In this document: positions 47,612-61,388 of the stretch, piece by piece
How the letters are laid out: each line of letters starts with the position of its first letter
Position numbering within the stretch: position 1 is the stretch's first letter
NCBI GenBank assembly: GCA_050014195.1
Contig: JBEKDT010000002.1
Coordinates: forward strand, 288,001-352,000
Direction of reading: 5' to 3'
Length of the DNA: 64,000 nucleotides
From: Desulfomonilia bacterium
GTDB lineage: Bacteria; Desulfobacterota; Desulfomonilia; UBA1062
Program-made: the position numbers and the translations under genes
The notes under the pieces: model-generated
Seen by the model: the letters and a program-made list of their open reading frames with translations, nothing else
What the model was told of the DNA's origin: nothing
The model's database searches: none

Positions 47612-48322
47612 CTATTCAGGTATAAGATCCTCAAATAGGCTTGGAGCCATGGCCATGACGTCATTGAACATAAGATATGCCAGGCGTCTGATCTCCCATT
47701 CAGCGGATTTTTCCAGGCGAAGCTCAAAGAAATGCCGTAAAGAACGGGCATTGACATAGACATAAGCAGCCGTGGACCACCCCACGGGCATGAGCCTTCT
47801 CAGCTCCTGGTTGCGCACCCCGAGTGACTGGAGCTCTTCATAGACCTCCATGGCATGCTTGTGCTCCCGGTCATAGGCCTCATAGACTTTCCTTACCTGG
47901 TCTTCGGATTCGATGTACTCCATTGCCGGGTAGATGAACAAATTCTTATTGGCCTTCACATACCTCGTGGAACGGAAGGTCCACCCGATACCGATGCGGT
48001 GACGGGTCCATTGGCCGGCCAGAGACTTGGATACGCCGGTCACATAGTAGACAAACTGCACGGCCTCAAGGCAGGTATGGTGGCCCCATGAGATAAGCTT
48101 TTTATTAAGCCTCAGGTCGTCCTCGTGGGTGCCTTCGGACTCATGGCTTTGCCTGGCTGTATAGGCAGGCAGCGTCTCGATCGTGACACCCTGGGATGCA
48201 ATTTCTTCGATCGGCGTTGTTACACCGATGAGCTTTATCATGGGCTCTTCGTTTCTAAAGAGACTCTGCCTGAGATGTCTCCACCTTTCAATGTGTTCCA
48301 GCTCATGATTAAAATACTTCAA
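47612..48322 (-). CDS. thyX: Flavin-dependent thymidylate synthase
   Basis: GH...LE, RHRx7STRY, NARSL.HF..LR, A.WEIR. Confidence 0.9.
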   Translation of the reverse strand: MKYFNHELEHIERWRHLRQSLFRNEEPMIKLIGVTTPIEEIASQGVTIETLPAYTARQSHESEGTHEDDLRLNKKLISWGHHTCLEAVQFVYYVTGVSKSLAGQWTRHRIGIGWTFRSTRYVKANKNLFIYPAMEYIESEDQVRKVYEAYDREHKHAMEVYEELQSLGVRNQELRRLMPVGWSTAAYVYVNARSLRHFFELRLEKSAEWEIRRLAYLMFNDVMAMAPSLFEDLIPE

Positions 48323-48903
48323 AATGGTCTCTCCTCCTCGCCATTTGTTGAAACCCTGTCACCCTGCCACACACCCCTGTAAGGTACTGCCTTACCCTCA
48401 ATGGGGAAAAAGGCAATGCACAGGATGCGGAACCCCATCTGAATCTCCACCTCCATGAGCCCTTGATGCTTCATACCTACCGTGAGCTTCCCCTGATAGT
48501 TGGGAGATATAAAAGCCGTTTCCAGAGGGATGCCTGAACGGATCAGCGTCGTTCGCGGCCTGATATAAGCAAAAAGATCACCCGGCAAATTAATCTGCTC
48601 AATGGTCTGGAATAGCAGGTATTCACCCGGCTTGACAACGAACACCCCATCAGGAGAATCGATGATGTCCATGAGTTTCTCTATCTGAGGGGTGACCCTG
48701 CTGTCCCGCATGAGACGAGCAGCGCCTACGGGCCTGTATATGGCTCCCAGCCTTAGGTCCACGGTAGTACCCTCAATGCCGTCAATCTGGTCAGAGTCGA
48801 GATACTCGACAAGGGGTTTCTTTACACTTTTACCCGAAATATGATCTTCCACGCCAACACCGCCGCGGACCATCTCGATGATCCTGTCAGCCCCCAATAC
48901 CAT
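48319..48903 (-). CDS. Trimeric dUTPase/dCTP deaminase family protein
   Basis: VDLRLG, PGEYLL.T.E, PRTTLIRSG, PNYQG. Confidence 0.8.
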   Translation of the reverse strand: MVLGADRIIEMVRGGVGVEDHISGKSVKKPLVEYLDSDQIDGIEGTTVDLRLGAIYRPVGAARLMRDSRVTPQIEKLMDIIDSPDGVFVVKPGEYLLFQTIEQINLPGDLFAYIRPRTTLIRSGIPLETAFISPNYQGKLTVGMKHQGLMEVEIQMGFRILCIAFFPIEGKAVPYRGVWQGDRVSTNGEEERPF

Positions 48904-49440
48904 CTACAACCTCCTCTTCGATGTGTCTGAACTCATGAATAGTAAGGCATTCTCCATTGTCTCATCATGGATAATAATCTGTTCAACCGTCGTGCGGCTT
49001 AAGGAAAGCACATCCTTCCAGTATTGGTCGCGCTCAGGGATGGGCGAGTCATAGGGATGCTCGTAGACTACCCTGGTGATGCCAGACATCACGATAAGCT
49101 TTGAGCAGGTGATACAAGGCTCGAGCGTGCAATATATGGTTGATCCCTCGAGGCTGACCCCTTTTTTTGCTGCCAGTGATATGGCATTGGCCTCTGCATG
49201 GGCAGACCTGCACATATCATACTTCATGGCCTCGGGCCACTTGAGCGACCTCCGGAAACAAACCCTATCATCCATGCAGTGTTTTTGGCCCGGAAGAGAG
49301 CCGTTATAGCCTGTTGTAATGACCTGCTTGTCATTTACCACCACTGCACCAGTAGGCCTTGACAGACACGTTGAGCGTGATGCGGCAAGCTTGGCCAGCA
49401 TCATGAAATATTCATCCCACGAAGGTCTCTTCTGATTCAT
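48904..49440 (-). CDS. dCMP deaminase (ComEB-like)
   Basis: RPSWDEYF, RSTC, GYNG, HAEANA, PCxxC; start at MNQKR. Confidence 0.9.
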   Translation of the reverse strand: MNQKRPSWDEYFMMLAKLAASRSTCLSRPTGAVVVNDKQVITTGYNGSLPGQKHCMDDRVCFRRSLKWPEAMKYDMCRSAHAEANAISLAAKKGVSLEGSTIYCTLEPCITCSKLIVMSGITRVVYEHPYDSPIPERDQYWKDVLSLSRTTVEQIIIHDETMENALLFMSSDTSKRRL

Positions 49441-49648
49441 ACCGGCAGCCTCAAAACTTCTGATTATTAACCAACAGGTGGGCTCCATATAATACGAAGT
49501 CCTTGAACCTGTAAAGAATCAACAGGTACATTCCCATTAATAACTCACCATACCATGGACAAAGTCCTGACCATGCTATAAATATAATCATAAATAGGCT
49601 TTTTCGCCATGATGAACAAGAAATTTCGGATCATCAGAAGGTGCGTGA

Positions 49649-51749: not shown

Positions 51750-52817
51750 TTACAGGATATTAGAAATCATGAACACCGTGAGCATGGACTTCGATGGCAG
51801 TATTTCTCGGTGTGCACAGAATGTCTTTTGCACTGCTCCATCAAACCTGGACTTGGTGAAGTATAATCCCTTGAAGCTGTATATCATGTTCCCAAACTTA
51901 TAGAGCAATCGGATAACCATCTTCAGGAGCTTTGACTCGCAGGGCTCATCCTGATCATCCACAACCGCCGGGCAAAGGCCGAGGTGCAAATACTTCACAC
52001 CCTCTTTCTTGAAGACCTCCATGGCATGGCACATGAGGGGATAGAAGATCCCCTGCTTGAACTTGTTGCTGAACCGGGAGATGTTGGGCACATAGCTGAC
52101 TACCTTGCCGTCCTTATAGAGCGGATCGAAGCAGATAAAGCCTACGAGTTCTCCATCATGGTATGCACAGAACTTTCTTGTACCTTCCTGGTATTCTTGG
52201 TCCATGGGGCGGATGAGAAAAACGACCTCGCGGTTTCTGACCTTGCGGGTCTTGAGCCATTCCTTGGTGAGCTGGTGGCACCCATCTTCTGAACAGTTCT
52301 CTTCTATCGTCACGCCCTCTTTCTTGGCATGATTTACCGATGTCCTCATGACCTGCTTCTTCTTGCCCTTGAGATCCCATTTCTCAAGATCAACGACTGA
52401 TTCGATACCAAACTGGGTCGCGTAATACCCGAACTTTTCATGAAGAAATTCTCCCATGCCCTGAGAGATCTGGATAAAGGCCGTGTTTGTCCTATCCTTG
52501 AGAAACTCCCGGATGAGGAGTTCTCTATCTTTCACATCACAGACAGGGTCAGCAAGGACAAATCGCGTACCCCATTTCTTCCTGAAGGTGATGAACCCGA
52601 CCCCTGACATATCGAAAAAGTGCATTTCTGGTTGCAGCATTGAAAAGGACAGGCAGTGATCACCGTATTTCCTGAGATAGGAGATCCTCTCATCAAATGT
52701 GAAGACATCAATCCCTGTACGGGTCCCGGGTCTATAATCATCTATGGAGATAACCTTGGCTGGGAAGAACTCCCCTGGACTATCTACGAGTGGTTTTACC
52801 TGCGCCATGGTACTCAT
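51750..52817 (-). CDS. Stand-alone DUF2156 (MprF C-terminal-like) aminoacyl-tRNA transferase
   Basis: VLADPV, LKGKK..MR..VN.A, FKKEG..YLHLGLCP, YSFKGL..TKSRF; no TM segments. Confidence 0.82.
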   Translation of the reverse strand: MSTMAQVKPLVDSPGEFFPAKVISIDDYRPGTRTGIDVFTFDERISYLRKYGDHCLSFSMLQPEMHFFDMSGVGFITFRKKWGTRFVLADPVCDVKDRELLIREFLKDRTNTAFIQISQGMGEFLHEKFGYYATQFGIESVVDLEKWDLKGKKKQVMRTSVNHAKKEGVTIEENCSEDGCHQLTKEWLKTRKVRNREVVFLIRPMDQEYQEGTRKFCAYHDGELVGFICFDPLYKDGKVVSYVPNISRFSNKFKQGIFYPLMCHAMEVFKKEGVKYLHLGLCPAVVDDQDEPCESKLLKMVIRLLYKFGNMIYSFKGLYFTKSRFDGAVQKTFCAHREILPSKSMLTVFMISNIL

Positions 52818-52853
52818 ATATTCATCTCTCCTTTTTTGTTATCCGTTCATGTC

Positions 52854-54461
52854 CTAGCGATTTTTCCCGAAACGCTCATGGCTTGTAACCCAATCCAGTG
52901 ACGAGAGCGCACCAGCTAGCGAGATCTCTCCAGCCATCACTACGGCAGCTGCGATCTCGGCAAGCTTAAGAACCTTGCCTTGTCCGTAACAACCGAGAAT
53001 CTCCAGACATTCTTTTTGTGTAGGAAGGCCGGTACCGCCGCCGTGGGTTGCCACGATGAGGGAAGGAAGCGTTATGGAGGCATAGAGGTCCCCTTCCGGT
53101 GTAATCTCTGTATAGATAAGCGTGGTAGTGGATTCGGCCACATTGGCCACATCCTGTCCTGTGGCAATGAACAATGCCGTCAGCGCGTTTGCCGCATGGA
53201 GTGCATTGCTCGATGAACCTGCCATGAAGGAGCCTAGGCTGGCTACCCTGCAGAGATGATCAAGCGTCTCGGGATCCACCCGCATATGCTGGATCATGAC
53301 CTCTCGCGGAATAACGATCTCCGCCGTGACTCTCTTCCCCCGTGTGTTCATGGTATTGATCAAGGATGCCTTCTTATCGGTGGCGAAGTTCGATTCCATA
53401 TAGAAATGGCGGACCGTATTTACCTGGGAGAGGATCCAGCTGCATGCCGTAAAGGTGGCCATGCTCACCATGTTCTGCCCTGCTGCATCGCCTGTGAAAT
53501 AATTGAATCGCAGGTAGATGAACTTGCTCGCCTGGTACCTTTCTATATTGAGAAGCTTTGCAACCTTGGAGCAAGACTCAGCCTGCCCCTTGATTTCATC
53601 CATATGCTCATCGAGCCATGTCACGAAGTCCCTGGCCTCTCTGGCTGATTCGAATGCGAATGCAGGGGCCCTTTGCATGCGGTCTTCAACAACGGTGACA
53701 GTAACACCGCCGCACATATTGATGATTTTCATGCCCCGATTATAGGATGCAACCAATGTCCCTTCACTGGCGCACAAGGGGATGAGGAACTCGCCTTTGG
53801 CATGTTCGCCATTGACCTTCAACGGTCCGGCAAATCCGAGGGGGATTTGTGCCACACCGGTAAAGTTTTCGATATTCCCTTTTGTTACGGCAGGATCAAA
53901 GGAATGATGCTTTACATGATGAAGGTGAACGCCGGTATACTCTTCCACGAAATCCTGGCGCTGACGGACGATATCCATGTCGTAATTGTTCTGCTTGTCG
54001 CATGGTATTTTTTTCTGTGTTGACCTGGTCTCAATAACCGAGTCTGTGGCTTCCAGATCCAGTATGCCGTAAGGATCGGTATTGCAGGATATGATGATCT
54101 GATGTTCGACATTTTTTGCAAGGGCGATTGCCTGTGCATGAAACTCTACATCCATGCCCATGGGGAAAGGAAGAGCCTGGTCCTGGTTTATCTCGCTGGC
54201 CTTGAGTCTTGTTCCGTTATTCCTCATGGTCACATCATCAAGGGGGATTTCAAGTCCATTGATGATGAGGCCGGAAACGCCTGTAATGATAGCGTCTTTC
54301 ATGGGATTTTTGATGTTGAATGATACACCGTCTTCGACATTCTTCAGGCTTCCAATAGAATAGATCTTTTTCATGATGAGCGGAGATATCGTTACATGAC
54401 TCTTGGGTTCCGATGCCCTCGTGATGGATACAAGCCTTGGTTCTGTCGTTGTATTTCTCAT
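52854..54461 (-). CDS. Class I HMG-CoA reductase with an extra N-terminal domain
   Basis: IENFTG, SEGTLVASYNRG, TGDAAGQNM, NFATDKK, ATGQD, C-terminal His; start at MRNTT after AAGGA. Confidence 0.88.
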   Translation of the reverse strand: MRNTTTEPRLVSITRASEPKSHVTISPLIMKKIYSIGSLKNVEDGVSFNIKNPMKDAIITGVSGLIINGLEIPLDDVTMRNNGTRLKASEINQDQALPFPMGMDVEFHAQAIALAKNVEHQIIISCNTDPYGILDLEATDSVIETRSTQKKIPCDKQNNYDMDIVRQRQDFVEEYTGVHLHHVKHHSFDPAVTKGNIENFTGVAQIPLGFAGPLKVNGEHAKGEFLIPLCASEGTLVASYNRGMKIINMCGGVTVTVVEDRMQRAPAFAFESAREARDFVTWLDEHMDEIKGQAESCSKVAKLLNIERYQASKFIYLRFNYFTGDAAGQNMVSMATFTACSWILSQVNTVRHFYMESNFATDKKASLINTMNTRGKRVTAEIVIPREVMIQHMRVDPETLDHLCRVASLGSFMAGSSSNALHAANALTALFIATGQDVANVAESTTTLIYTEITPEGDLYASITLPSLIVATHGGGTGLPTQKECLEILGCYGQGKVLKLAEIAAAVVMAGEISLAGALSSLDWVTSHERFGKNR

Positions 54462-54552
54462 TGTCCTTTTCCTTTCATTGAATCTGGAATATATTCCAAT
54501 TTGCCGATTGCCGGTTATTCCATAGAGAGATCTTGACCATACGTATTGATAA

Positions 54553-54568
54553 TCACGAAACGTGCCAA
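54553..54568 (-). promoter_or_regulatory. Candidate sigma-54 promoter
   Basis: TTGGCACG-N4-GTGA (perfect -24, variant -12) 92 nt upstream of the ATG. Confidence 0.45.
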
Positions 54569-54926
54569 GATTGGGCAAATAAATTACGAAACTACCCCCA
54601 GTTGAATATCAGGGGTTGTCTAGTATTTATTTTATCATATTTAGTTATTTCAATCAGTTATGAAACATTATACTGGTGGATAATATTTTGTTATGTGTAT
54701 TATTTTTCCACTATTCGAAGAAAAGCTTTTCCTGGGAATTATTCTCAGGGCTTATTTCCCCGGGCTAGGATTCAAGGATGATACCAGTCATGATAGAAAA
54801 AATCATAATGGTTTACCAAGCGAAGATTAAACTGCTATGAAAAATAGCAACAAGTATTCGTAGGGGTGGTTCAATATTCAATGCCAGCGTAATGGTGCCC
54901 ATAACGGTAAACGAAAAGATATTCTT

Positions 54927-56777
54927 ATGATTTCTACAAAAGGGTTAATTACAAAACTCACCATACGTCTCGAGCTATACATCAATCTCATTGTAGTTCC
55001 TTTGGCCGTATATTACGGAACCATTGCAGGAATGTTTCAGGGTAAAAAGTTATTATACGTTATCTATACCGCAATAATCTCAGCAACCCTTGCCACCCTC
55101 TTCGGCATGTCCATCCGTATCTGGAAGCTTACCGGGATCTTGAATGCCCTTAATGCAGGGACAGAAGACTATGCAACGATCAAGCTTGATCTTCTCTCAT
55201 ACCCCACAACCGAGAGTATTGTCATTGTCCTTCGATGGGTCCTCGGCCTGATGTGCCAATATGCTATTTTACAGTCATCGGTTGGGATTACATGGTTTGA
55301 GACATTGCCGGTATTCTTTATCCTTCTTCTCTGTGTACCCATAAATAGCATAATATCCTATTGCACTACGGAACATCTCCTTTCGCCTGTCCTCATGGAT
55401 GATCGCATCAAAGGCGTACACCTCCCACGGGATTCATATACCTTATTCAGCGCCTCTTTCAGAACTACACTCATCGTCATCTCTGTCCTTATCATTCCAC
55501 TGGTCACCCTGGGGCACTTTCTTTTCATATCCAATCTACAGGCATTCAGGCTGAGCGACCTCTCTATCAATGTTTTCATCATCATGGCGCTATCTCTCGC
55601 TGCTATCTTCGTAACCGTGCATGAATCGAATGCAGGAATACATACGGGCCTGAAGATGACCCTGGATACCCTGGAGGAACTGGAGAAAGGGAATCTGCTT
55701 GTGGAGCCCATACCATTGTTAGCCAAAGGAGAGATCGGAATCATTAGTCAATCGGTGAATGTACTGGCCCATTCTTTGCGGAATTCGGAAGAAATGTTCT
55801 CAAAGGCATTTAGATCCAGCCCTGTTGGAATTGTCATATGGAGGATACAAGACGGTTGTTTTCTCAATATAAATGAAAGCTTTCTCAAAATATCGGGGTT
55901 TTCAAGAGATTCTGTCTTAGGGAAGACCCTTGAAGAGGCAGGATTGTTCAAATCGATCTCTGATTACTACAGGATCGTCCAGACCCTTCAAGGACTTGGG
56001 CAAGTCAGAGGATTCGAAACGGAATTATGTACCAATACCAACGAGATCAGGATGGTCACAATCTCTGCAGAGATAATTATGCTCTCGGATGAACGGTGTA
56101 TGATAGCCACAATAGAAGATGTTACTGAGAAAAAGACCCTGGAAAGAGAGATCCTCAGTATCGGCGAAAGAGAGCGACAGAAAATAGGCCAAGACCTGCA
56201 CGACGATCTCACACCACATCTGATAGGCATCGAGGTCATGAGCGAGTTATTGAAAAAAAAGCTCCAAGAAAACAGTGTCCCTTCAACAAGTGAAGCAGAA
56301 AAGATTAGAAGTCTGATTGAACAGGCTATTCAAAAAACAAGGAGACTCTCCAGGGGATTATGCCCGGTATTCCTCGCCGACCACGGGCTTGAGTCACTAC
56401 TGCAGGAGATGGCGTCAAACATTAAAGAAGTACATGGGATAACTTGCAATTTCAACTATCAACGATCCATTCTCATTGATGATATTTCAATATGTACCCA
56501 TATATATTATATCGTCCATGAAGCTATCTATAATGCCATAAGACACGGAAAGGCAGACAGGATTACTATTGATTTATTGTATAAAAATGGTGTTGTAACA
56601 CTTACAACCGAAGATGACGGCATAGGCATCCGAAACAATGAGAGCCCTCAAGGTATGGGGCTCAAGATTATGAATTTTCGCGCGAATATGATAGGGGCGG
56701 ATTTAAAAATTAAGAGTAATCCGAATGAAGGGACAAAAGTAATATTATCATTCGAGTATGATGGTTATAATAAATGA
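54927..56777 (+). CDS. Membrane PAS sensor histidine kinase (HisKA_3 type)
   Basis: Several TMs, HAMP-like GEIG segment, PAS, ERQKIGQDLHD, NAIRHG, DDGIG, GMGL. Confidence 0.9.
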   Translation: MISTKGLITKLTIRLELYINLIVVPLAVYYGTIAGMFQGKKLLYVIYTAIISATLATLFGMSIRIWKLTGILNALNAGTEDYATIKLDLLSYPTTESIVIVLRWVLGLMCQYAILQSSVGITWFETLPVFFILLLCVPINSIISYCTTEHLLSPVLMDDRIKGVHLPRDSYTLFSASFRTTLIVISVLIIPLVTLGHFLFISNLQAFRLSDLSINVFIIMALSLAAIFVTVHESNAGIHTGLKMTLDTLEELEKGNLLVEPIPLLAKGEIGIISQSVNVLAHSLRNSEEMFSKAFRSSPVGIVIWRIQDGCFLNINESFLKISGFSRDSVLGKTLEEAGLFKSISDYYRIVQTLQGLGQVRGFETELCTNTNEIRMVTISAEIIMLSDERCMIATIEDVTEKKTLEREILSIGERERQKIGQDLHDDLTPHLIGIEVMSELLKKKLQENSVPSTSEAEKIRSLIEQAIQKTRRLSRGLCPVFLADHGLESLLQEMASNIKEVHGITCNFNYQRSILIDDISICTHIYYIVHEAIYNAIRHGKADRITIDLLYKNGVVTLTTEDDGIGIRNNESPQGMGLKIMNFRANMIGADLKIKSNPNEGTKVILSFEYDGYNK

Positions 56778-56797
56778 ATATTGGGAAGTAAATTGGT

Positions 56798-57454
56798 ATG
56801 AACATCGCAAAAAAGGTTAAGATATTGATTGTAGAAGATCATGAGATATTCCGGCTAGGAATCAAAGAACTTATCAACCATGAGCCTGATCTGGCTGTGT
56901 GTGCCGAGGCGGAGGATGTAGATACGGCCAGGACACTGATTAATGCATTTCAACCTGATATGGTCATTATTGATATAACGCTAAAAAAGAGCAACGGCAT
57001 GGATCTCATTAAGGAGATCAGCTCATTCCATAAGACCATGAAGATGCTCGTTCTGTCTATGCATGATGAGCTTCTCTATGCTGAACGGTCTCTCCAGGCA
57101 GGTGCGCAAGGTTATATCATGAAGCAGGAGACCTCAAAATCTATAGTCAAGGCCATTCGTCACATCTTACAAGGTAACATCTATGTAAGCGAGAATATTA
57201 TGAGCAATCTTCTGAACAGAGTGAGAACAGGCCAAGATAATTTCGAGAAATCACCTGTAGAAAACCTTTCCGATAGGGAGCTTGAAGTCTTGAGAATGAT
57301 AGGACAAGGAAGATCAACCGGTGAGATAGCCGCTGAAATGAACCTGAGTGTAAGTACCATCAGTACGTATCGTGAAAGAATCAAAGAAAAGCTCCAGTTA
57401 AAAAATTCTGCTGAGCTCATACGATATGCCGTCCACTGGGTAGAGGATAATTAA
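56798..57454 (+). CDS. NarL/LuxR-family response regulator
   Basis: IVEDH, IDI, LSMH, GYIMK, LSDRELEV..IG.G HTH. Confidence 0.93.
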   Translation: MNIAKKVKILIVEDHEIFRLGIKELINHEPDLAVCAEAEDVDTARTLINAFQPDMVIIDITLKKSNGMDLIKEISSFHKTMKMLVLSMHDELLYAERSLQAGAQGYIMKQETSKSIVKAIRHILQGNIYVSENIMSNLLNRVRTGQDNFEKSPVENLSDRELEVLRMIGQGRSTGEIAAEMNLSVSTISTYRERIKEKLQLKNSAELIRYAVHWVEDN

Positions 57455-57772: not shown

Positions 57773-59632
57773 ATGGCTAACGGATATGCAGGAAAATTCT
57801 TACATGTCAATTTAACAGATTCCACCTGTTCCGACTTCATCATTGATGATGCCACATTGCAAAAATATATCGGTGGGAGTTGTCTTGCTGCAAAGCTCTT
57901 CCTCGACAGGTATCCCATAAATCTCGATCCGCTGGCTCCGGACAGCCCCTTTATGATTATGACAGGCCCCATGGTGGGCAGCGGCTTTCCCGGCACATCA
58001 AGGTTCAGCATCTCTGCAAAATCTCCCCAGACAGGGATCTGGGGCGAGTCCGCATGCGGGGGTACCTTCAGCCCGGATCTGAAGCGGGCAGGTTATGATG
58101 GTATTGTGATTGAGGGAAAGGCCAAATCTCCCGTTTACCTCGCCATTACAGATGACAGTGTTCAGATCCTGGATGCCTCCCATCTATGGGGCAAAGACAT
58201 CTATGAAGCCACTGATATCTTAAAAGAAAAGGATAAATCCTTCAAGGTGCTGACAATAGGCCAGGCCGGCGAAAATAAGGTGTTGATCGCTGCTATCGGC
58301 AATGACAAGGGTCATTTCAGCGGCAGGACAGGTCTCGGGGCTGTCATGGGATCAAAAAATCTGAAGGCCATCATCGTGAAAGGTTCAAAGAAGCTATCCA
58401 AGGCAGATGATGAGAAATTTAAGCTGTTCCAGAAGGAAGCCATGCAGGAGGTGAAAGATTCGGCCCTTGCAGACGGCATCCACCAGATGGGGTCCGACGC
58501 CAACATGGACCTTGGGATGATCACTGGCGATGTACCCATCAAGAACTGGACCGTTGGCCAGGACTTCGAGCTTTCCTCCAACTTGAGCGGACCGACCATG
58601 AAAGAGAAGTATCTCACCAAGGCCCATGCATGCTCGAACTGCCCCGTTGCCTGCAAGAGGGTGGTCAAGGTTGACGACGGCCCTTTCAAGACAGAGGAAG
58701 GCCCGGGGCCCGAATACGAGACCTGCGGCACCTTCGGGACAATGATGATGAATCCCGATCTGGCTGCCGTGATAAAGGCCAATGAACTCTGCAACAAGTA
58801 CGGCATGGACACCATCAGCTGCGGATCGGCCATTGCCCTGGCTATGGAACTCTATGAAAAAGGGACTCTGACAAAGGACGACCTGGATGGGCTCGATCTC
58901 ACCTGGGGAAACATGGATGCCGTGATGGTATTGATCAAAATGATCGCCTTCCGGGAAGGTTTTGGCAATGTGCTGGCTGAGGGAAGCTTGAAGGCCGCCC
59001 AGAAGATAGGAAAAGGGACAGAAGACCTTGTTGTCCAGGTCAAGGGCCTCGAGGCCCCTATGCACGACCCGAGGGGGTTTCATGGAATGGGCCTTGCCTA
59101 TATGATGTCCAACAGGGGAGCCTGCCACCTCCAGCACGCAGTACTTGCCACAGAACAGGGCATGGCCTCGTGGCCCCAACTCTTCGACATGAAGGACGAC
59201 TACATGGGTACGACCAGTGTCGGCAAGGCGGCGTTGGTATACAATTCCGAGAACTACGGCATCCTGGGGAATTCGCTCGCCATCTGCCACTATCTCATCT
59301 ATATATTAAAACCCGAGACCATCCTTGGTGCCTTCAATGCGGTTACCGGCTGGAATCTGAGCTCCCAAGACCTTCTCAAAGCAGGAATGAGGGACTGGAC
59401 CCTGAAACGTGGCTTCAACAACCTGCTGGGAATCACGGCTAAAGATGACAAGCTCCCCAAGAAGCTCTTGACAGCCCTCGAGGAAGGAGGGGGGGCGGGT
59501 TCAGTGCCCGACGTAGAGCTCCTCTTGAAAGAGTACTACATCCTCAGGGGACTCGATGTTCGTGGCTATCCAAAGCAGGAGAAACTCGTTGAACTTGGCC
59601 TTGATGAATTAAAGAACAGACTCTATACATAA
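57773..59632 (+). CDS. aor: Aldehyde:ferredoxin oxidoreductase (tungsten AOR family)
   Basis: GY.GK.L.VNL, KSP.TG, GR.GLGAVMGSKNLK, CxxCxxxC, PEYET, GMDTIS, RGACH. Confidence 0.92.
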   Translation: MANGYAGKFLHVNLTDSTCSDFIIDDATLQKYIGGSCLAAKLFLDRYPINLDPLAPDSPFMIMTGPMVGSGFPGTSRFSISAKSPQTGIWGESACGGTFSPDLKRAGYDGIVIEGKAKSPVYLAITDDSVQILDASHLWGKDIYEATDILKEKDKSFKVLTIGQAGENKVLIAAIGNDKGHFSGRTGLGAVMGSKNLKAIIVKGSKKLSKADDEKFKLFQKEAMQEVKDSALADGIHQMGSDANMDLGMITGDVPIKNWTVGQDFELSSNLSGPTMKEKYLTKAHACSNCPVACKRVVKVDDGPFKTEEGPGPEYETCGTFGTMMMNPDLAAVIKANELCNKYGMDTISCGSAIALAMELYEKGTLTKDDLDGLDLTWGNMDAVMVLIKMIAFREGFGNVLAEGSLKAAQKIGKGTEDLVVQVKGLEAPMHDPRGFHGMGLAYMMSNRGACHLQHAVLATEQGMASWPQLFDMKDDYMGTTSVGKAALVYNSENYGILGNSLAICHYLIYILKPETILGAFNAVTGWNLSSQDLLKAGMRDWTLKRGFNNLLGITAKDDKLPKKLLTALEEGGGAGSVPDVELLLKEYYILRGLDVRGYPKQEKLVELGLDELKNRLYT

Positions 59633-59660
59633 CACCTTATCCATACAGGAGGTATTTTTC

Positions 59661-60089
59661 ATGGCAAAAGTGAAGGCACTAACGCAGGAGTGGATGGATG
59701 CATACAAGGCAGCGATCGTGTCAGACCCTGAGTACAAGCAGATCGCCAAGGACTGGGAAGGCAGTGTGTCGCTCATTGTGAATGCAGACCCAAGTAAGGG
59801 CGTCCCCGAGCCGGTCTATCTCTTCCAGGATTACTGGCACGGTGATGTGGGCGATTTTATCGTGTGCGACAAGGCAAAGGCCGAGAGCGCGAAGTTCGTC
59901 ATGATCGGTGACTATTCCCGCTGGAAGCAGGTAGCCCGCAAGGAGCTCGATGCCACGAAAGGCCTCCTCCAGGGTAAGCTGAAGATGAAGGGCGACCTGC
60001 CTTATGTGGTCAGGAACATCAAGGTCGTCAACAAGGTCGTCGATGTCCTCGGGAAGTTCGAAACACAGTGGCCTGATGACCCTGAATGA
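59661..60089 (+). CDS. SCP2 sterol/lipid-binding domain protein
   Basis: EW..AY....N/S..Y...A..WEG, A.F...G.Y..W, LLQGKLKMKGD. Confidence 0.8.
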   Translation: MAKVKALTQEWMDAYKAAIVSDPEYKQIAKDWEGSVSLIVNADPSKGVPEPVYLFQDYWHGDVGDFIVCDKAKAESAKFVMIGDYSRWKQVARKELDATKGLLQGKLKMKGDLPYVVRNIKVVNKVVDVLGKFETQWPDDPE

Positions 60090-60224
60090 CAAGGAGTAGG
60101 AGACACCAGGCTCATCCTACATTGGTGTAGGTTTAGCTGAATCCGGGATACGCGAGCAGCAATCGTCCTAATGCATTCGTTTATGTAAGGACGTTTGTCT
60201 ACGGATATCCATAAGGAGCGAGGC

Positions 60225-61388
60225 ATGGGTTACGATTCAGATCTATCATTCAATTATTTCGGACCGACCAAGATCATCTTCGGTATAGATGCATCCAAGG
60301 ATGTGGAGATCGAGATGGGCCAGCTGGGCGGGACCAAGGCGGTCGTGGTCACGGACCAGGGCATCATGAAGGCAGGCCTTATTGACCACATTGTAAAGGC
60401 CCTCGGCAGCAAGTGCGTGGGCGTCTTCAGCGACGTCCCTCAGGATACCGGGGTGGAGGTGGTCGATGCGGGTGCCTCCTTTGCCAAGAAAAACGGAGCG
60501 GATATAGTAGTCAGTGTTGGCGGCGGCAGCGTCATCGACACCGGTAAGGGCATGTGCATCCTGCTCACCGAGGGTGGAAACCTGCGGGACATCAATGGGG
60601 TCCAGCTTCTGTCAAGGCCCCAGACCCCGCACGTCGTGATCCCCACCACTGCAGGCACGGGCAGTGAAGTGACCAATGTCGCAGTCATCATGGACAAAGA
60701 GATGGGCCAGAAGCGGCTGGTCGTTGAAAATTTTAATGTCCCCCGGCTTGCCATCCTTGACCCCAAGATGACGGCCAAGCTGCCCAAGCTCATGACCGCA
60801 GGCACGGGCATGGATGCCATGACGCATGCAGTGGAGTCTCTCCACGCCTTACCTCACGAACCAATAACCGATGCGCTGGGTATCCATGCAATAAGGCTTC
60901 TGTCCCGATACCTGCCGGTATGCATAGAGAACGGAAGCGATCTCGTTGCCAGGGGCCAGGTGCAGATTGCAGCCACTATAGCCGGATGGGCATTCGGCAT
61001 CGCGGGTGTTGGAAATGTACACGCCCTGGCACATTCCATCGGTGCTGTTGCCCATGTACCGCACGGCATAGCCAATGGAATCCTTCTGGCAGAATGTATG
61101 GAATTTAACATTGAGAGTTGCCCTGATGCCTATGCCATGGTGGCCGAGGCCTTCGGTGTCCGCGAGAAGGGTATGGATGACATGGGTGCCGCCAAGGCAG
61201 CCATTGCCGCCATCAGGAGATTCACCAAGAAAATCGGACATCCTCAGAAACTCTCGGAGATGAAGGTGAAAGAGGATGATATCGCTAAGGCCGCCGAGCT
61301 GAGCCTGGGTGATGGAGCTATTGTCAACAATCCGCGCTTGGTCCTCGACGCATCCGAAATGCTCGAGATTTACAAAAAAGTGCTTTAA
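60225..61388 (+). CDS. Iron-containing alcohol dehydrogenase
   Basis: GGGSVID, PTTAGTGSE, DAMTHAVE, HALAH, HG.AN; start at MGYD. Confidence 0.93.
   Translation: MGYDSDLSFNYFGPTKIIFGIDASKDVEIEMGQLGGTKAVVVTDQGIMKAGLIDHIVKALGSKCVGVFSDVPQDTGVEVVDAGASFAKKNGADIVVSVGGGSVIDTGKGMCILLTEGGNLRDINGVQLLSRPQTPHVVIPTTAGTGSEVTNVAVIMDKEMGQKRLVVENFNVPRLAILDPKMTAKLPKLMTAGTGMDAMTHAVESLHALPHEPITDALGIHAIRLLSRYLPVCIENGSDLVARGQVQIAATIAGWAFGIAGVGNVHALAHSIGAVAHVPHGIANGILLAECMEFNIESCPDAYAMVAEAFGVREKGMDDMGAAKAAIAAIRRFTKKIGHPQKLSEMKVKEDDIAKAAELSLGDGAIVNNPRLVLDASEMLEIYKKVL

Follow-up and report, generated by a model that had tools for sequence, protein, structure and literature searches.

The HMG-CoA reductase (HMGR) fold and the DUF2156 domain are textbook families with one job each, mevalonate synthesis for the first and modification of membrane-lipid charge for the second. 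According to the available text of two papers on the DUF2156 family, its known enzymes esterify hydroxyls of phosphatidylglycerol (PG), diacylglycerol (DAG) and ergosterol (PMC8913301; PMC6103681), and a basic helix between the two halves of their GCN5-related N-acetyltransferase (GNAT) fold binds the tRNA acceptor stem (PMC6103681). Here, we describe a locus in which the two families stand side by side as a two-gene cassette: a gene for an HMGR-fold reductase followed by one for a free-standing DUF2156 protein, at positions 51,750 to 54,461 (minus strand) of a 64,000-nt stretch of Desulfomonilia bacterium DNA (GenBank assembly GCA_050014195.1, contig JBEKDT010000002.1, positions 288,001 to 352,000), which we call the window. 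We propose that this cassette points to an undescribed small pathway.

The reductase-transferase cassette and its conservation

The two-gene unit with a 36-nt gap, as the original prediction had read it from the letters alone, was confirmed by its open reading frames (ORFs), a Shine-Dalgarno site ahead of the second gene and the lack of a terminator-like site in the 36-nt spacer (Table 1). Read from its TTG, the longest reductase ORF (52854..54578, minus strand) would encode 574 aa. A start at the ATG at 54461 yields a 535-aa protein with the N-terminus MRNTTTE, and most listed reductase homologues begin at this point too. The reductase stop codon occupies 52854-52856, and the next ATG, that of the transferase, lies at 52817. 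Neither protein has a membrane segment, given their highest 19-residue Kyte-Doolittle means (0.96 for the DUF2156 protein and 1.67 for the reductase, the latter in a segment within the catalytic-domain match).

In Pfam, the DUF2156 protein matches only PF09924 (LPG_synthase_C; E 5.7e-52, residues 48-335, profile positions 4-297 of 298), which bears out the earlier statement that it carries no flippase or transmembrane domain. Against the MprF model NF033480 it scored 99.9 bits (cut-off 600) over profile positions 545-816 only, with no match to the flippase domain. Its closest sequence match in the PDB is 4v36 (E 2.8e-20), and its structural model (pLDDT 77.2) has a tandem GNAT fold whose top Foldseek matches are 4v36, 5vrv, 4v35 and 7duw (E 1e-17 to 1e-20; for 4v36_A, E 1.8e-20 and TM 0.74 by target), with FemX and aminoacyl-tRNA-dependent peptide synthases (Sbb17) ranked lower. 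The model has a basic helix at residues 152-166, and G151, K152, K154, Q155 and R158 do not vary among 20 sequences. No fused, longer version of the transferase turned up at E <= 1e-20, which counts as weak evidence. Judged by family and fold, the protein is a soluble, free-standing member of the aminoacyl-tRNA transferase family and not MprF, and its activity is predicted.

Conservation of the pair elsewhere had been proposed as a check, and it was found by two routes. Among 41 relatives, PF25653, the N-terminal domain of the reductase, gave 24 matches above cut-off in 17 genomes, and in 19 of the 24 a PF09924 gene directly follows the reductase on the same strand; of the remainder, two lie at contig ends, two have no transferase and one (G023:C60) is not a reductase. 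In addition, the transferase alignment was searched against one genome per species (GTDB) and the neighbours were typed by tblastn, which yielded 78 loci. An HMGR-fold reductase directly adjoins the closest DUF2156 relatives in 48 of these, directly upstream in 38 (Desulfomonilia- and Syntrophaceae-labelled metagenome-assembled genomes, MAGs) and directly downstream in 10 (Desulfobacterales-type and some Syntrophaceae-labelled MAGs). A 436-aa PF07993 protein stands directly downstream of the transferase in another 16 loci, no reductase lies beside it in 10 (five of them from Bermanella or Oceanicoccus MAGs), and 4 are cut by a contig end. Tandem duplication of the whole unit occurs in L070, L071 and L092, and two cassettes per MAG are common among relatives. 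The genome of the window, a Desulfomonilia-type MAG (4.2 Mb, 29 contigs, rated 100% complete), likewise holds a second pair (C12:136741-138348 and 138374-139447; 25-nt gap, 535 and 357 aa) whose catalytic domain is 76% and whose transferase is 63% identical to those of the window. The pairing is far beyond chance, and the cassette is real and conserved.

The PF07993 protein (L075:1567-2877; E 9.2e-39) is a substitute reductase. Its closest match in the PDB is MxaA, a terminal thioester reductase of polyketide synthase/non-ribosomal peptide synthetase (PKS/NRPS) type (4u7w, E 2.2e-13), and fatty acyl-CoA reductase is much further away (E 6.6e-4). The chemistry common to HMGR-fold and PF07993 reductases would be the reduction of a pantetheine thioester. 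Functional linkage of the reductase and the transferase is very likely, because their adjacency survives inversion, duplication and a swap to an unrelated reductase of the same chemistry. Cooperation between a thioester reductase and an aminoacyl-tRNA transferase is independently supported by the inverted order with adjacency kept and by the replacement of the reductase by an unrelated one. The inversion itself perhaps took one or two events. In the transferase tree (quick IQ-TREE maximum likelihood with Shimodaira-Hasegawa-like approximate likelihood-ratio support, SH-aLRT), all DUF2156 proteins of the cassettes fall into a single clade (SH-aLRT 96) at the end of a very long branch, remote from the MprF domain of the genome and from its third soluble copy, and the gammaproteobacterial cassette transferases form a separate clade (SH-aLRT 100). 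A prediction of the reductase and transferase as a complex, run without controls, scored 0.00 and counts neither for nor against binding.

Table 1. Coordinates of the cassette and its parts in the window
Feature	Position	Strand	Basis
HMGR-fold thioester reductase (probable), 535 aa, first gene	52854..54461	-	ORF; Pfam PF25653, PF00368
N-terminal beta-sandwich accessory domain, residues 29-142	54036..54377	-	PF25653, E 2.4e-23
Catalytic domain, residues 165-532	52866..53969	-	PF00368, E 6.3e-123; Ser684-equivalent is Glu
36-nt intergenic spacer	52818..52853	-	Shine-Dalgarno GGAGA 52827-52831, 9 nt ahead of ATG
Free-standing DUF2156 (aminoacyl-tRNA transferase family) protein, 355 aa, second gene	51750..52817	-	PF09924, ATG start
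Promoter-like site upstream of the reductase gene, weak	54667..54694	-	Consensus only, 10/12 matches

Promoter-like sites in the region number 7, with a shuffle mean of 6.3, and are thus not in excess. At 54927-57454 of the window lie genes for a PAS/HisKA_3 histidine kinase and a LuxR-type response regulator with a G+C content of 0.40-0.42, compared with about 0.50 in their surroundings. They occupy the place where relatives carry methyltransferase and N-terminal nucleophile (Ntn) hydrolase genes, and this position together with the low G+C content indicates that the kinase/regulator pair is probably an insertion or replacement. The ordinary neighbours are thyX, dCTP deaminase-like and dCMP deaminase genes on the minus strand (47612-49488) and aldehyde:ferredoxin oxidoreductase and Fe-alcohol dehydrogenase genes on the plus strand (57773-61388), the order of which is syntenic across the genus.

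Some loci of relatives and paralogues differ in their surroundings. At L018:3477-5492 (G003:C9), the reductase has a catalytic domain 93% identical to that of the window and two ketoacyl synthase III-like genes replace the transferase; the near-duplicate contig G003:C8 has a transferase gene broken into two frames. The second pair of the window's genome is followed by a 605-aa fusion of a membrane Acyl_transf_3 domain with a periplasmic SBP_bac_3 domain (L009:9545-11362, G000:C12) and then by a DUF6160 gene. The gammaproteobacterial loci (L099-L104; Bermanella and Oceanicoccus MAGs) have a methyltransferase gene upstream of the transferase and no reductase, with a ChrR-type cupin gene downstream in 4 of 5 and a Na:alanine symporter gene nearby on the opposite strand in 4 of 5. 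The neighbours of six Deltaproteobacteria-type loci without a reductase (L049, L058, L064, L067, L069 and L072) showed nothing recurrent.

The reductase and the mevalonate pathway

The PF00368 match of the reductase covers the full catalytic-domain fold (profile positions 2-367 of 368), and its best solved relative is the archaeal class I enzyme 6hr7 (E 4.8e-89). As had been noted from the sequence, it keeps the class I catalytic motifs: the Glu of EGTLVAS, the Lys of TDKK, the Asp of GQD and the His of TSH align with those of the solved enzymes 6hr7 and 8ecg, and these residues and their surrounding motifs are invariant in a 22-sequence alignment of paired reductases. In human numbering we take them to be Glu559, Lys691, Asp767 and His866. 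Beyond PF00368 and PF25653, no Pfam family was matched at E <= 0.01, the short-chain dehydrogenase/reductase (SDR)-type PF07993 fold included. Part of the human numbering of the HMGR catalytic and pocket residues is given in the available text of PMC3875450, where Ser684 is a listed pocket residue.

Against the NCBIfam model TIGR00533, the reductase scored 353.7 bits, below the equivalog cut-off of 441.8. The position of Ser684, six before the Asp of DKK, is Ser in 6hr7 and in the plant enzyme 8ecg and Glu in the reductase of the window; across the 43 paired reductases captured by the pattern it is Asp in 28 and Glu in 15, and it is acidic in five more. The position of Lys735 (four before GSxMAG) is Val, Ala or Ile in an uncertain register, with a basic residue one position earlier in 32 of 43. 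Since that register is ambiguous, we dropped the missing Lys735 as clear evidence against HMG binding, and the argument from the HMG pocket rests on Ser684.

Searching 1.84 billion representative proteins with the reductase gave 3764 relatives at E <= 0.001 and 1030 at E <= 1e-30. Among the best 150, the motif was captured in 111, with Glu at the Ser684 position in 68, Arg in 16, Asp in 11 and Ser in 8. An acidic residue there (79 of 111) is widespread in the whole non-canonical radiation, including fusions of adenylation, thiolation and HMGR domains (A-T-HMGR), and hence serves only as a marker of this radiation; we dropped the idea that it marks a cationic substrate. The HMGR domains of the long relatives, ten of which were scanned with Pfam (P0141, P0132, P0209, P0226, P0135, P0165, P0185, P0163, P0177 and P0139), are 38-45% identical to that of the window. 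Their architectures are AMP-binding + PP-binding + HMGR, the same with an EcKL/APH kinase (about 1450-1500 aa), AMP-binding + HMGR, HMGR + kinase (about 800-930 aa) and thioesterase-like + HMGR. Relatives of about 900 aa, whose length had suggested reductase-transferase fusions, are reductase-kinase fusions by Pfam.

Because it is fused after adenylation and carrier domains, the HMGR fold appears to have a general role as a thioester reductase. Judging from these architectures, it is widely used to reduce activated carboxylic acids, taking the position that an SDR-type R domain has in NRPS-like enzymes, and in some fusions the fused kinase would then decorate the alcohol product. A rough tree (FastTree, midpoint-rooted, without support values and thus a sketch only) places the paired reductases together, with the two unpaired paralogues of the genome next to them and the Ser-bearing proteins of about 410 aa at a distance. 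The sub-cut-off score, the acidic Ser684 position and membership in the non-canonical radiation set the reductase of the window apart from the mevalonate enzyme, and we consider it to be probably a thioester reductase, not an enzyme of the mevalonate pathway.

The genome background agrees with the original prediction in one respect and departs from it in another. No mevalonate-pathway gene was found among the window ORFs scanned around the pair. Over the whole genome, the HMG-CoA synthase models PF08540 and PF01154 and the models for mevalonate kinase (TIGR00549) and diphosphomevalonate decarboxylase (TIGR01240) gave no match, and there are only two GHMP-kinase matches. The best match in the genome to the archaeal HMG-CoA synthase model reached 130.6 bits (cut-off 353); it lies at G000:C9:78727-79734, beside a thiolase-like match, and is probably another thiolase-fold enzyme, not an HMG-CoA synthase. 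In the 41 relatives searched, there was no mevalonate kinase above cut-off and no HMG-CoA synthase C-domain (PF08540). The methylerythritol phosphate (MEP) pathway is present, with Dxr (418.9 bits) and IspH (262.8 bits) both above their cut-offs. The claim that no other mevalonate gene accompanies the reductase in the window thus extends to the whole genome and, for mevalonate kinase and HMG-CoA synthase, to the relatives, and the suggested check for HMG-CoA synthase and mevalonate kinase turned up no mevalonate pathway that would explain the reductase. The notion of a true HMG-CoA reductase making mevalonate is not supported, in view of the low TIGR00533 score, an acidic residue at Ser684 in 43 of 43 paired reductases, the missing HMG-CoA synthase and the kinship with thioester-reductase modules.

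By profile search, the genome holds four PF00368 and four PF09924 genes. One of the latter is a full-length MprF (879-aa frame) with a flippase domain, and two of the former are the reductase paralogues outside the two pairs, both without the N-terminal domain. The third HMGR-fold gene (G000:C12:86436-87617; L010:8436-9617) encodes 393 aa with Asp at the Ser684 position, and is flanked by genes for a TetR regulator and a 630-aa AMP-binding ligase and by a divergent gene for a cardiolipin-synthase-like protein of the phospholipase D family; the locus looks like a unit converting an acid to a CoA thioester and then to an alcohol. The fourth (G000:C10:114286-115449; L011:8286-9449) encodes 387 aa with the canonical Ser at 684, downstream of an ArnT/PMT_2 glycosyltransferase gene and upstream of NAD-epimerase/3-beta-HSD, SDR and MFS genes. 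With four paralogues in one genome and thousands of public relatives, the HMGR fold would here be a general thioester-reductase module, and 'HMG-CoA reductase' calls in bacteria with the MEP pathway should not be taken for evidence of mevalonate metabolism.

The N-terminal PF25653 domain is modelled as a beta-sandwich (pLDDT 81.8), with the beta subunit of a C-glycoside deglycosidase as its closest structure (8umc_B, E 1.5e-6, TM 0.74 by target). In a 401-genome sample of the phylum, it occurs in only 7 genomes, three of them (G073, G111 and G301) outside the family of the window; those of G073 and G301 are URO-D fusions by Pfam, and the G111 ORF has no match to the reductase catalytic domain. 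This occurrence on URO-D-like and non-reductase proteins outside the family argues that the domain is a mobile accessory module. The Pfam name 'HMG-CoA reductase N-terminal' is too narrow, since fusions of the domain with URO-D-like proteins and with an alpha-L-arabinofuranosidase were seen at L013:7888-9477, L015:1956-3503 and L017:6658-8607; G023:C60 is an arabinofuranosidase with the same N-terminal domain.

Order of steps and possible products

In light of this pairing, what might the cassette make? Our preferred reading, to which we give an even chance, is that reduction of an acyl thioester yields a primary alcohol and that aminoacyl-tRNA then donates its amino acid to this alcohol. The cassette would be co-transcribed and its two enzymes would act in consecutive steps on one metabolite. 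First, the HMGR-fold enzyme would use NAD(P)H to turn an acyl-CoA, or an acyl group held on a carrier, into a primary alcohol; second, the DUF2156 transferase would move an amino acid from aminoacyl-tRNA onto the hydroxyl to give an aminoacyl ester. This is the most economical reading because no new chemistry is needed from either family. It retains the core of the original prediction, in which an alcohol is made and then aminoacylated in a tRNA-dependent way: cooperation of the two enzymes gains support from the inversion and the reductase swap, and mevalonate becomes an improbable alcohol. Gene structure, families, conservation, the reductase swap and the absence of a mevalonate pathway are observations; the order of the steps, the substrates, the alcohol and the product are what we infer.

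In many relatives, further enzymes encoded in the operon of the cassette may extend the route, with a small PmtA-like S-adenosylmethionine (SAM) methyltransferase that could methylate the amine and a C69/secernin-type Ntn hydrolase that could cleave the product. The 218-aa methyltransferase is found in 40 of the 78 loci, namely 34 of 48 with the HMGR-fold reductase, 1 of 16 with PF07993 and 5 of 5 gammaproteobacterial ones, and its best match in the PDB, a weak one, is phosphatidylethanolamine N-methyltransferase (E 1.3e-6). The protein encoded upstream of it in 20 loci (424 aa) belongs to the C69 dipeptidase/secernin/carcinine-hydrolase Ntn family (Atlas score 0.98, TM 0.94). The window's own genome has two methyltransferase homologues (41-45% identity, C2:367667-369029) and a C69-like homologue (C3:135378-136643), which gave no lead because their contexts are unrelated. 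In one Desulfobacteraceae MAG, a Pfa-type synthase directly follows a methyltransferase-transferase-reductase cassette (L107:1149-18128, G428:C47), in the order PfaD-like enoyl reductase, ketosynthase-acyltransferase-acyl carrier protein-ketoreductase (2319 aa) and ketosynthase-chain length factor-dehydratase (2766 aa), with no thioesterase among the scanned genes of the locus; homologous genes follow the cassette in L076, L077, L082 and L093. As the cassette there abuts a Pfa-type secondary-lipid synthase, a long-chain acyl group is hinted at in this one lineage. A methionyl-tRNA synthetase gene upstream of the cassette in L077, L088 and L094 was considered as a clue to the amino acid and discarded, as it is the only such gene in each genome and hence housekeeping.

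Several points weigh against reduction followed by aminoacylation. Product and step order are predictions from sequence, and, as the recognised substrate of the HMGR fold is small and polar, a long-chain acyl group would be a speculative one. The methyltransferase and Ntn hydrolase genes are absent from the window's own locus. Two reductases of the paired type (G024:C46 and G003:C9) have no DUF2156 gene, and in 10 of the 74 assessable loci the transferase stands without an adjacent reductase, 5 of these being gammaproteobacterial loci where, of the partners, the methyltransferase alone is kept. Close kinship links many of the MAGs behind the 78 loci, and some loci share a MAG, so that their counts are not independent; moreover, the PF07993-paired transferases are a single clade (SH-aLRT 100), making the swap one event.

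A rather unlikely alternative is the reverse order, in which the DUF2156 protein would load an aminoacyl group from aminoacyl-tRNA onto the thiol of CoA or pantetheine, replacing adenylation and carrier domains, and the reductase would release an amino aldehyde or amino alcohol that the methyltransferase may N-methylate. Such a unit would need only aminoacyl-tRNA, CoA and NAD(P)H. It would match the closest reductase architectures, where HMGR comes after acyl activation and loading (A-T-HMGR), and MxaA-type reductases, which include the best PDB match of the substitute, act on aminoacyl or peptidyl thioesters. The weak likeness of the methyltransferase to phosphatidylethanolamine N-methyltransferase also points this way. 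Gene order speaks on both sides, the transferase gene being first in Desulfobacterales and the reductase gene first in Desulfomonilia. The acidic Ser684 position of the 43 captured paired reductases would suit a cationic substrate, but its spread through the non-canonical radiation deprives it of value as a specific sign of an amine. The available text of PMC8913301 and PMC6103681 reports no thiol acceptor for DUF2156 enzymes.

It is quite improbable that the reductase is a true class I HMG-CoA reductase whose mevalonate, or a prenol further down the pathway, receives the amino acid. The strong PF00368 match, the conserved catalytic residues and an identity, by eye, of about half of the residues with archaeal HMGR are what such an enzyme would show. 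Set against these are the score below the TIGR00533 cut-off, the replacement of Ser684 by Glu or Asp, the lack of a Lys at the Lys735 position by alignment (register uncertain) and a genome with no HMG-CoA synthase by three models and no mevalonate kinase or decarboxylase, as well as the ability of a PF07993 reductase to replace the enzyme beside the same transferase clade.

There is also a slim chance that the acceptor of the DUF2156 protein is one of the ordinary membrane lipids (PG, DAG or cardiolipin). The reductase would then only supply or remodel a lipid part, such as the fatty alcohol of ether lipids, and the two enzymes would not work successively on one molecule. The characterised bacterial DUF2156 enzymes in the available text of PMC8913301 and PMC6103681 do act on glycerolipids, and about 1 kb separates the unpaired reductase of G024:C46 from a gene for a CDP-alcohol phosphatidyltransferase. 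On the other side, plain PG aminoacylation would be redundant as the role of the cassette transferase, since the genome already has a full-length MprF with its flippase domain; the cassette clade is very distant from MprF and has no membrane anchor, and adjacency kept through inversion and a fold swap argues for a shared metabolite. Least credible, and very improbable, is an amide-forming logic in which the transferase couples one amino acid to the amine of another, itself bound as a thioester or already reduced, to give a small peptide aldehyde or alcohol, as in the livipeptin system, where, in the available text of PMC10548850, a tRNA-utilising transferase and an NRPS-like protein without a condensation domain give a presumed peptide-aldehyde inhibitor: Sbb17 and FemX are structural relatives of the transferase, but at lower rank than the aminoacyl-PG synthase (aaPGS) domains that are its closest structures, the livipeptin enzyme is a leucyl/phenylalanyl (L/F)-transferase and not a DUF2156 protein, and no adenylation or carrier gene is conserved beside the cassette.

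The cassette transferase clade is found in Desulfomonilia, Syntrophaceae-labelled and Desulfobacterales MAGs and in a few gammaproteobacterial MAGs. If an aminoacylated alcohol or an amino alcohol is what the cassette makes, this product would be an undescribed class of metabolite or lipid of anaerobic sediment and peat bacteria, and the known uses of aminoacyl-tRNA outside translation would be widened. Should the reverse order prove true, the cassette would be a ribosome-independent, tRNA-dependent route to amino alcohols, with a new acceptor class for the transferase and a new physiological role for the HMGR fold.

Comparison with known systems

Among characterised enzymes, the transferase is most like MprF/aaPGS (4v36, 4v34/4v35 and 7duw), with which it shares PF09924, the tandem GNAT fold of its model and the conserved basic helix. 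It differs in having no flippase or membrane domain and an identity to 4v36 of about 23% (Foldseek); it also lies in a clade distant from the genome's own MprF and is coupled to a thioester reductase instead of a flippase. The fungal ergosteryl-glycine synthase ErgS and VlmA of valanimycin synthesis, as presented in the available text of PMC8913301 and PMC6103681, are likewise stand-alone transferases that use the aminoacyl-tRNA of a separate synthetase and an acceptor other than PG. Unlike these, the cassette adjoins no sterol or hydroxylamine pathway and has a reductase as its partner.

With class I HMGR (6hr7; human 1dq8), the reductase has in common the fold, the catalytic Glu, Lys, Asp and His, and the DAxGxN-type and GGGT motifs, from which CoA- and NAD(P)H-dependent four-electron chemistry would be expected. 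It departs from these enzymes in its Glu or Asp in place of Ser684, its sub-cut-off score and its extra N-terminal beta-sandwich, and in being one of four paralogues in a genome without a mevalonate pathway. In the literature searched, supplementary tables not covered, we found no published link between DUF2156 and HMG-CoA reductase and, in the available text of those sources, no HMGR-like domains in NRPS-like enzymes.

The terminal R domains of NRPS, PKS and carboxylic acid reductase (CAR) enzymes (MxaA, 4u7w) would play the same role as we propose for the reductase, converting a pantetheine thioester to an aldehyde or alcohol. The reductase of the window has the HMGR fold in place of the SDR fold, is free-standing and has no conserved adenylation or carrier neighbour. 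The fungal A-T-R-R glycine betaine reductase can, going by the available part of its description, be set beside it as having the same presumed thioester-reducing role. In the livipeptin system (PMC10548850, available text), a tRNA-dependent transferase cooperates with an NRPS-like enzyme, as the cassette transferase would with its reductase; there, an L/F-transferase and an NRPS-like protein form an amide, whereas the cassette combines DUF2156 with the HMGR fold. Thus, by analogy, the terminal reductase domain would be the closest counterpart of the cassette in its logic, and the livipeptin system its closest precedent for the use of a tRNA-dependent transferase.

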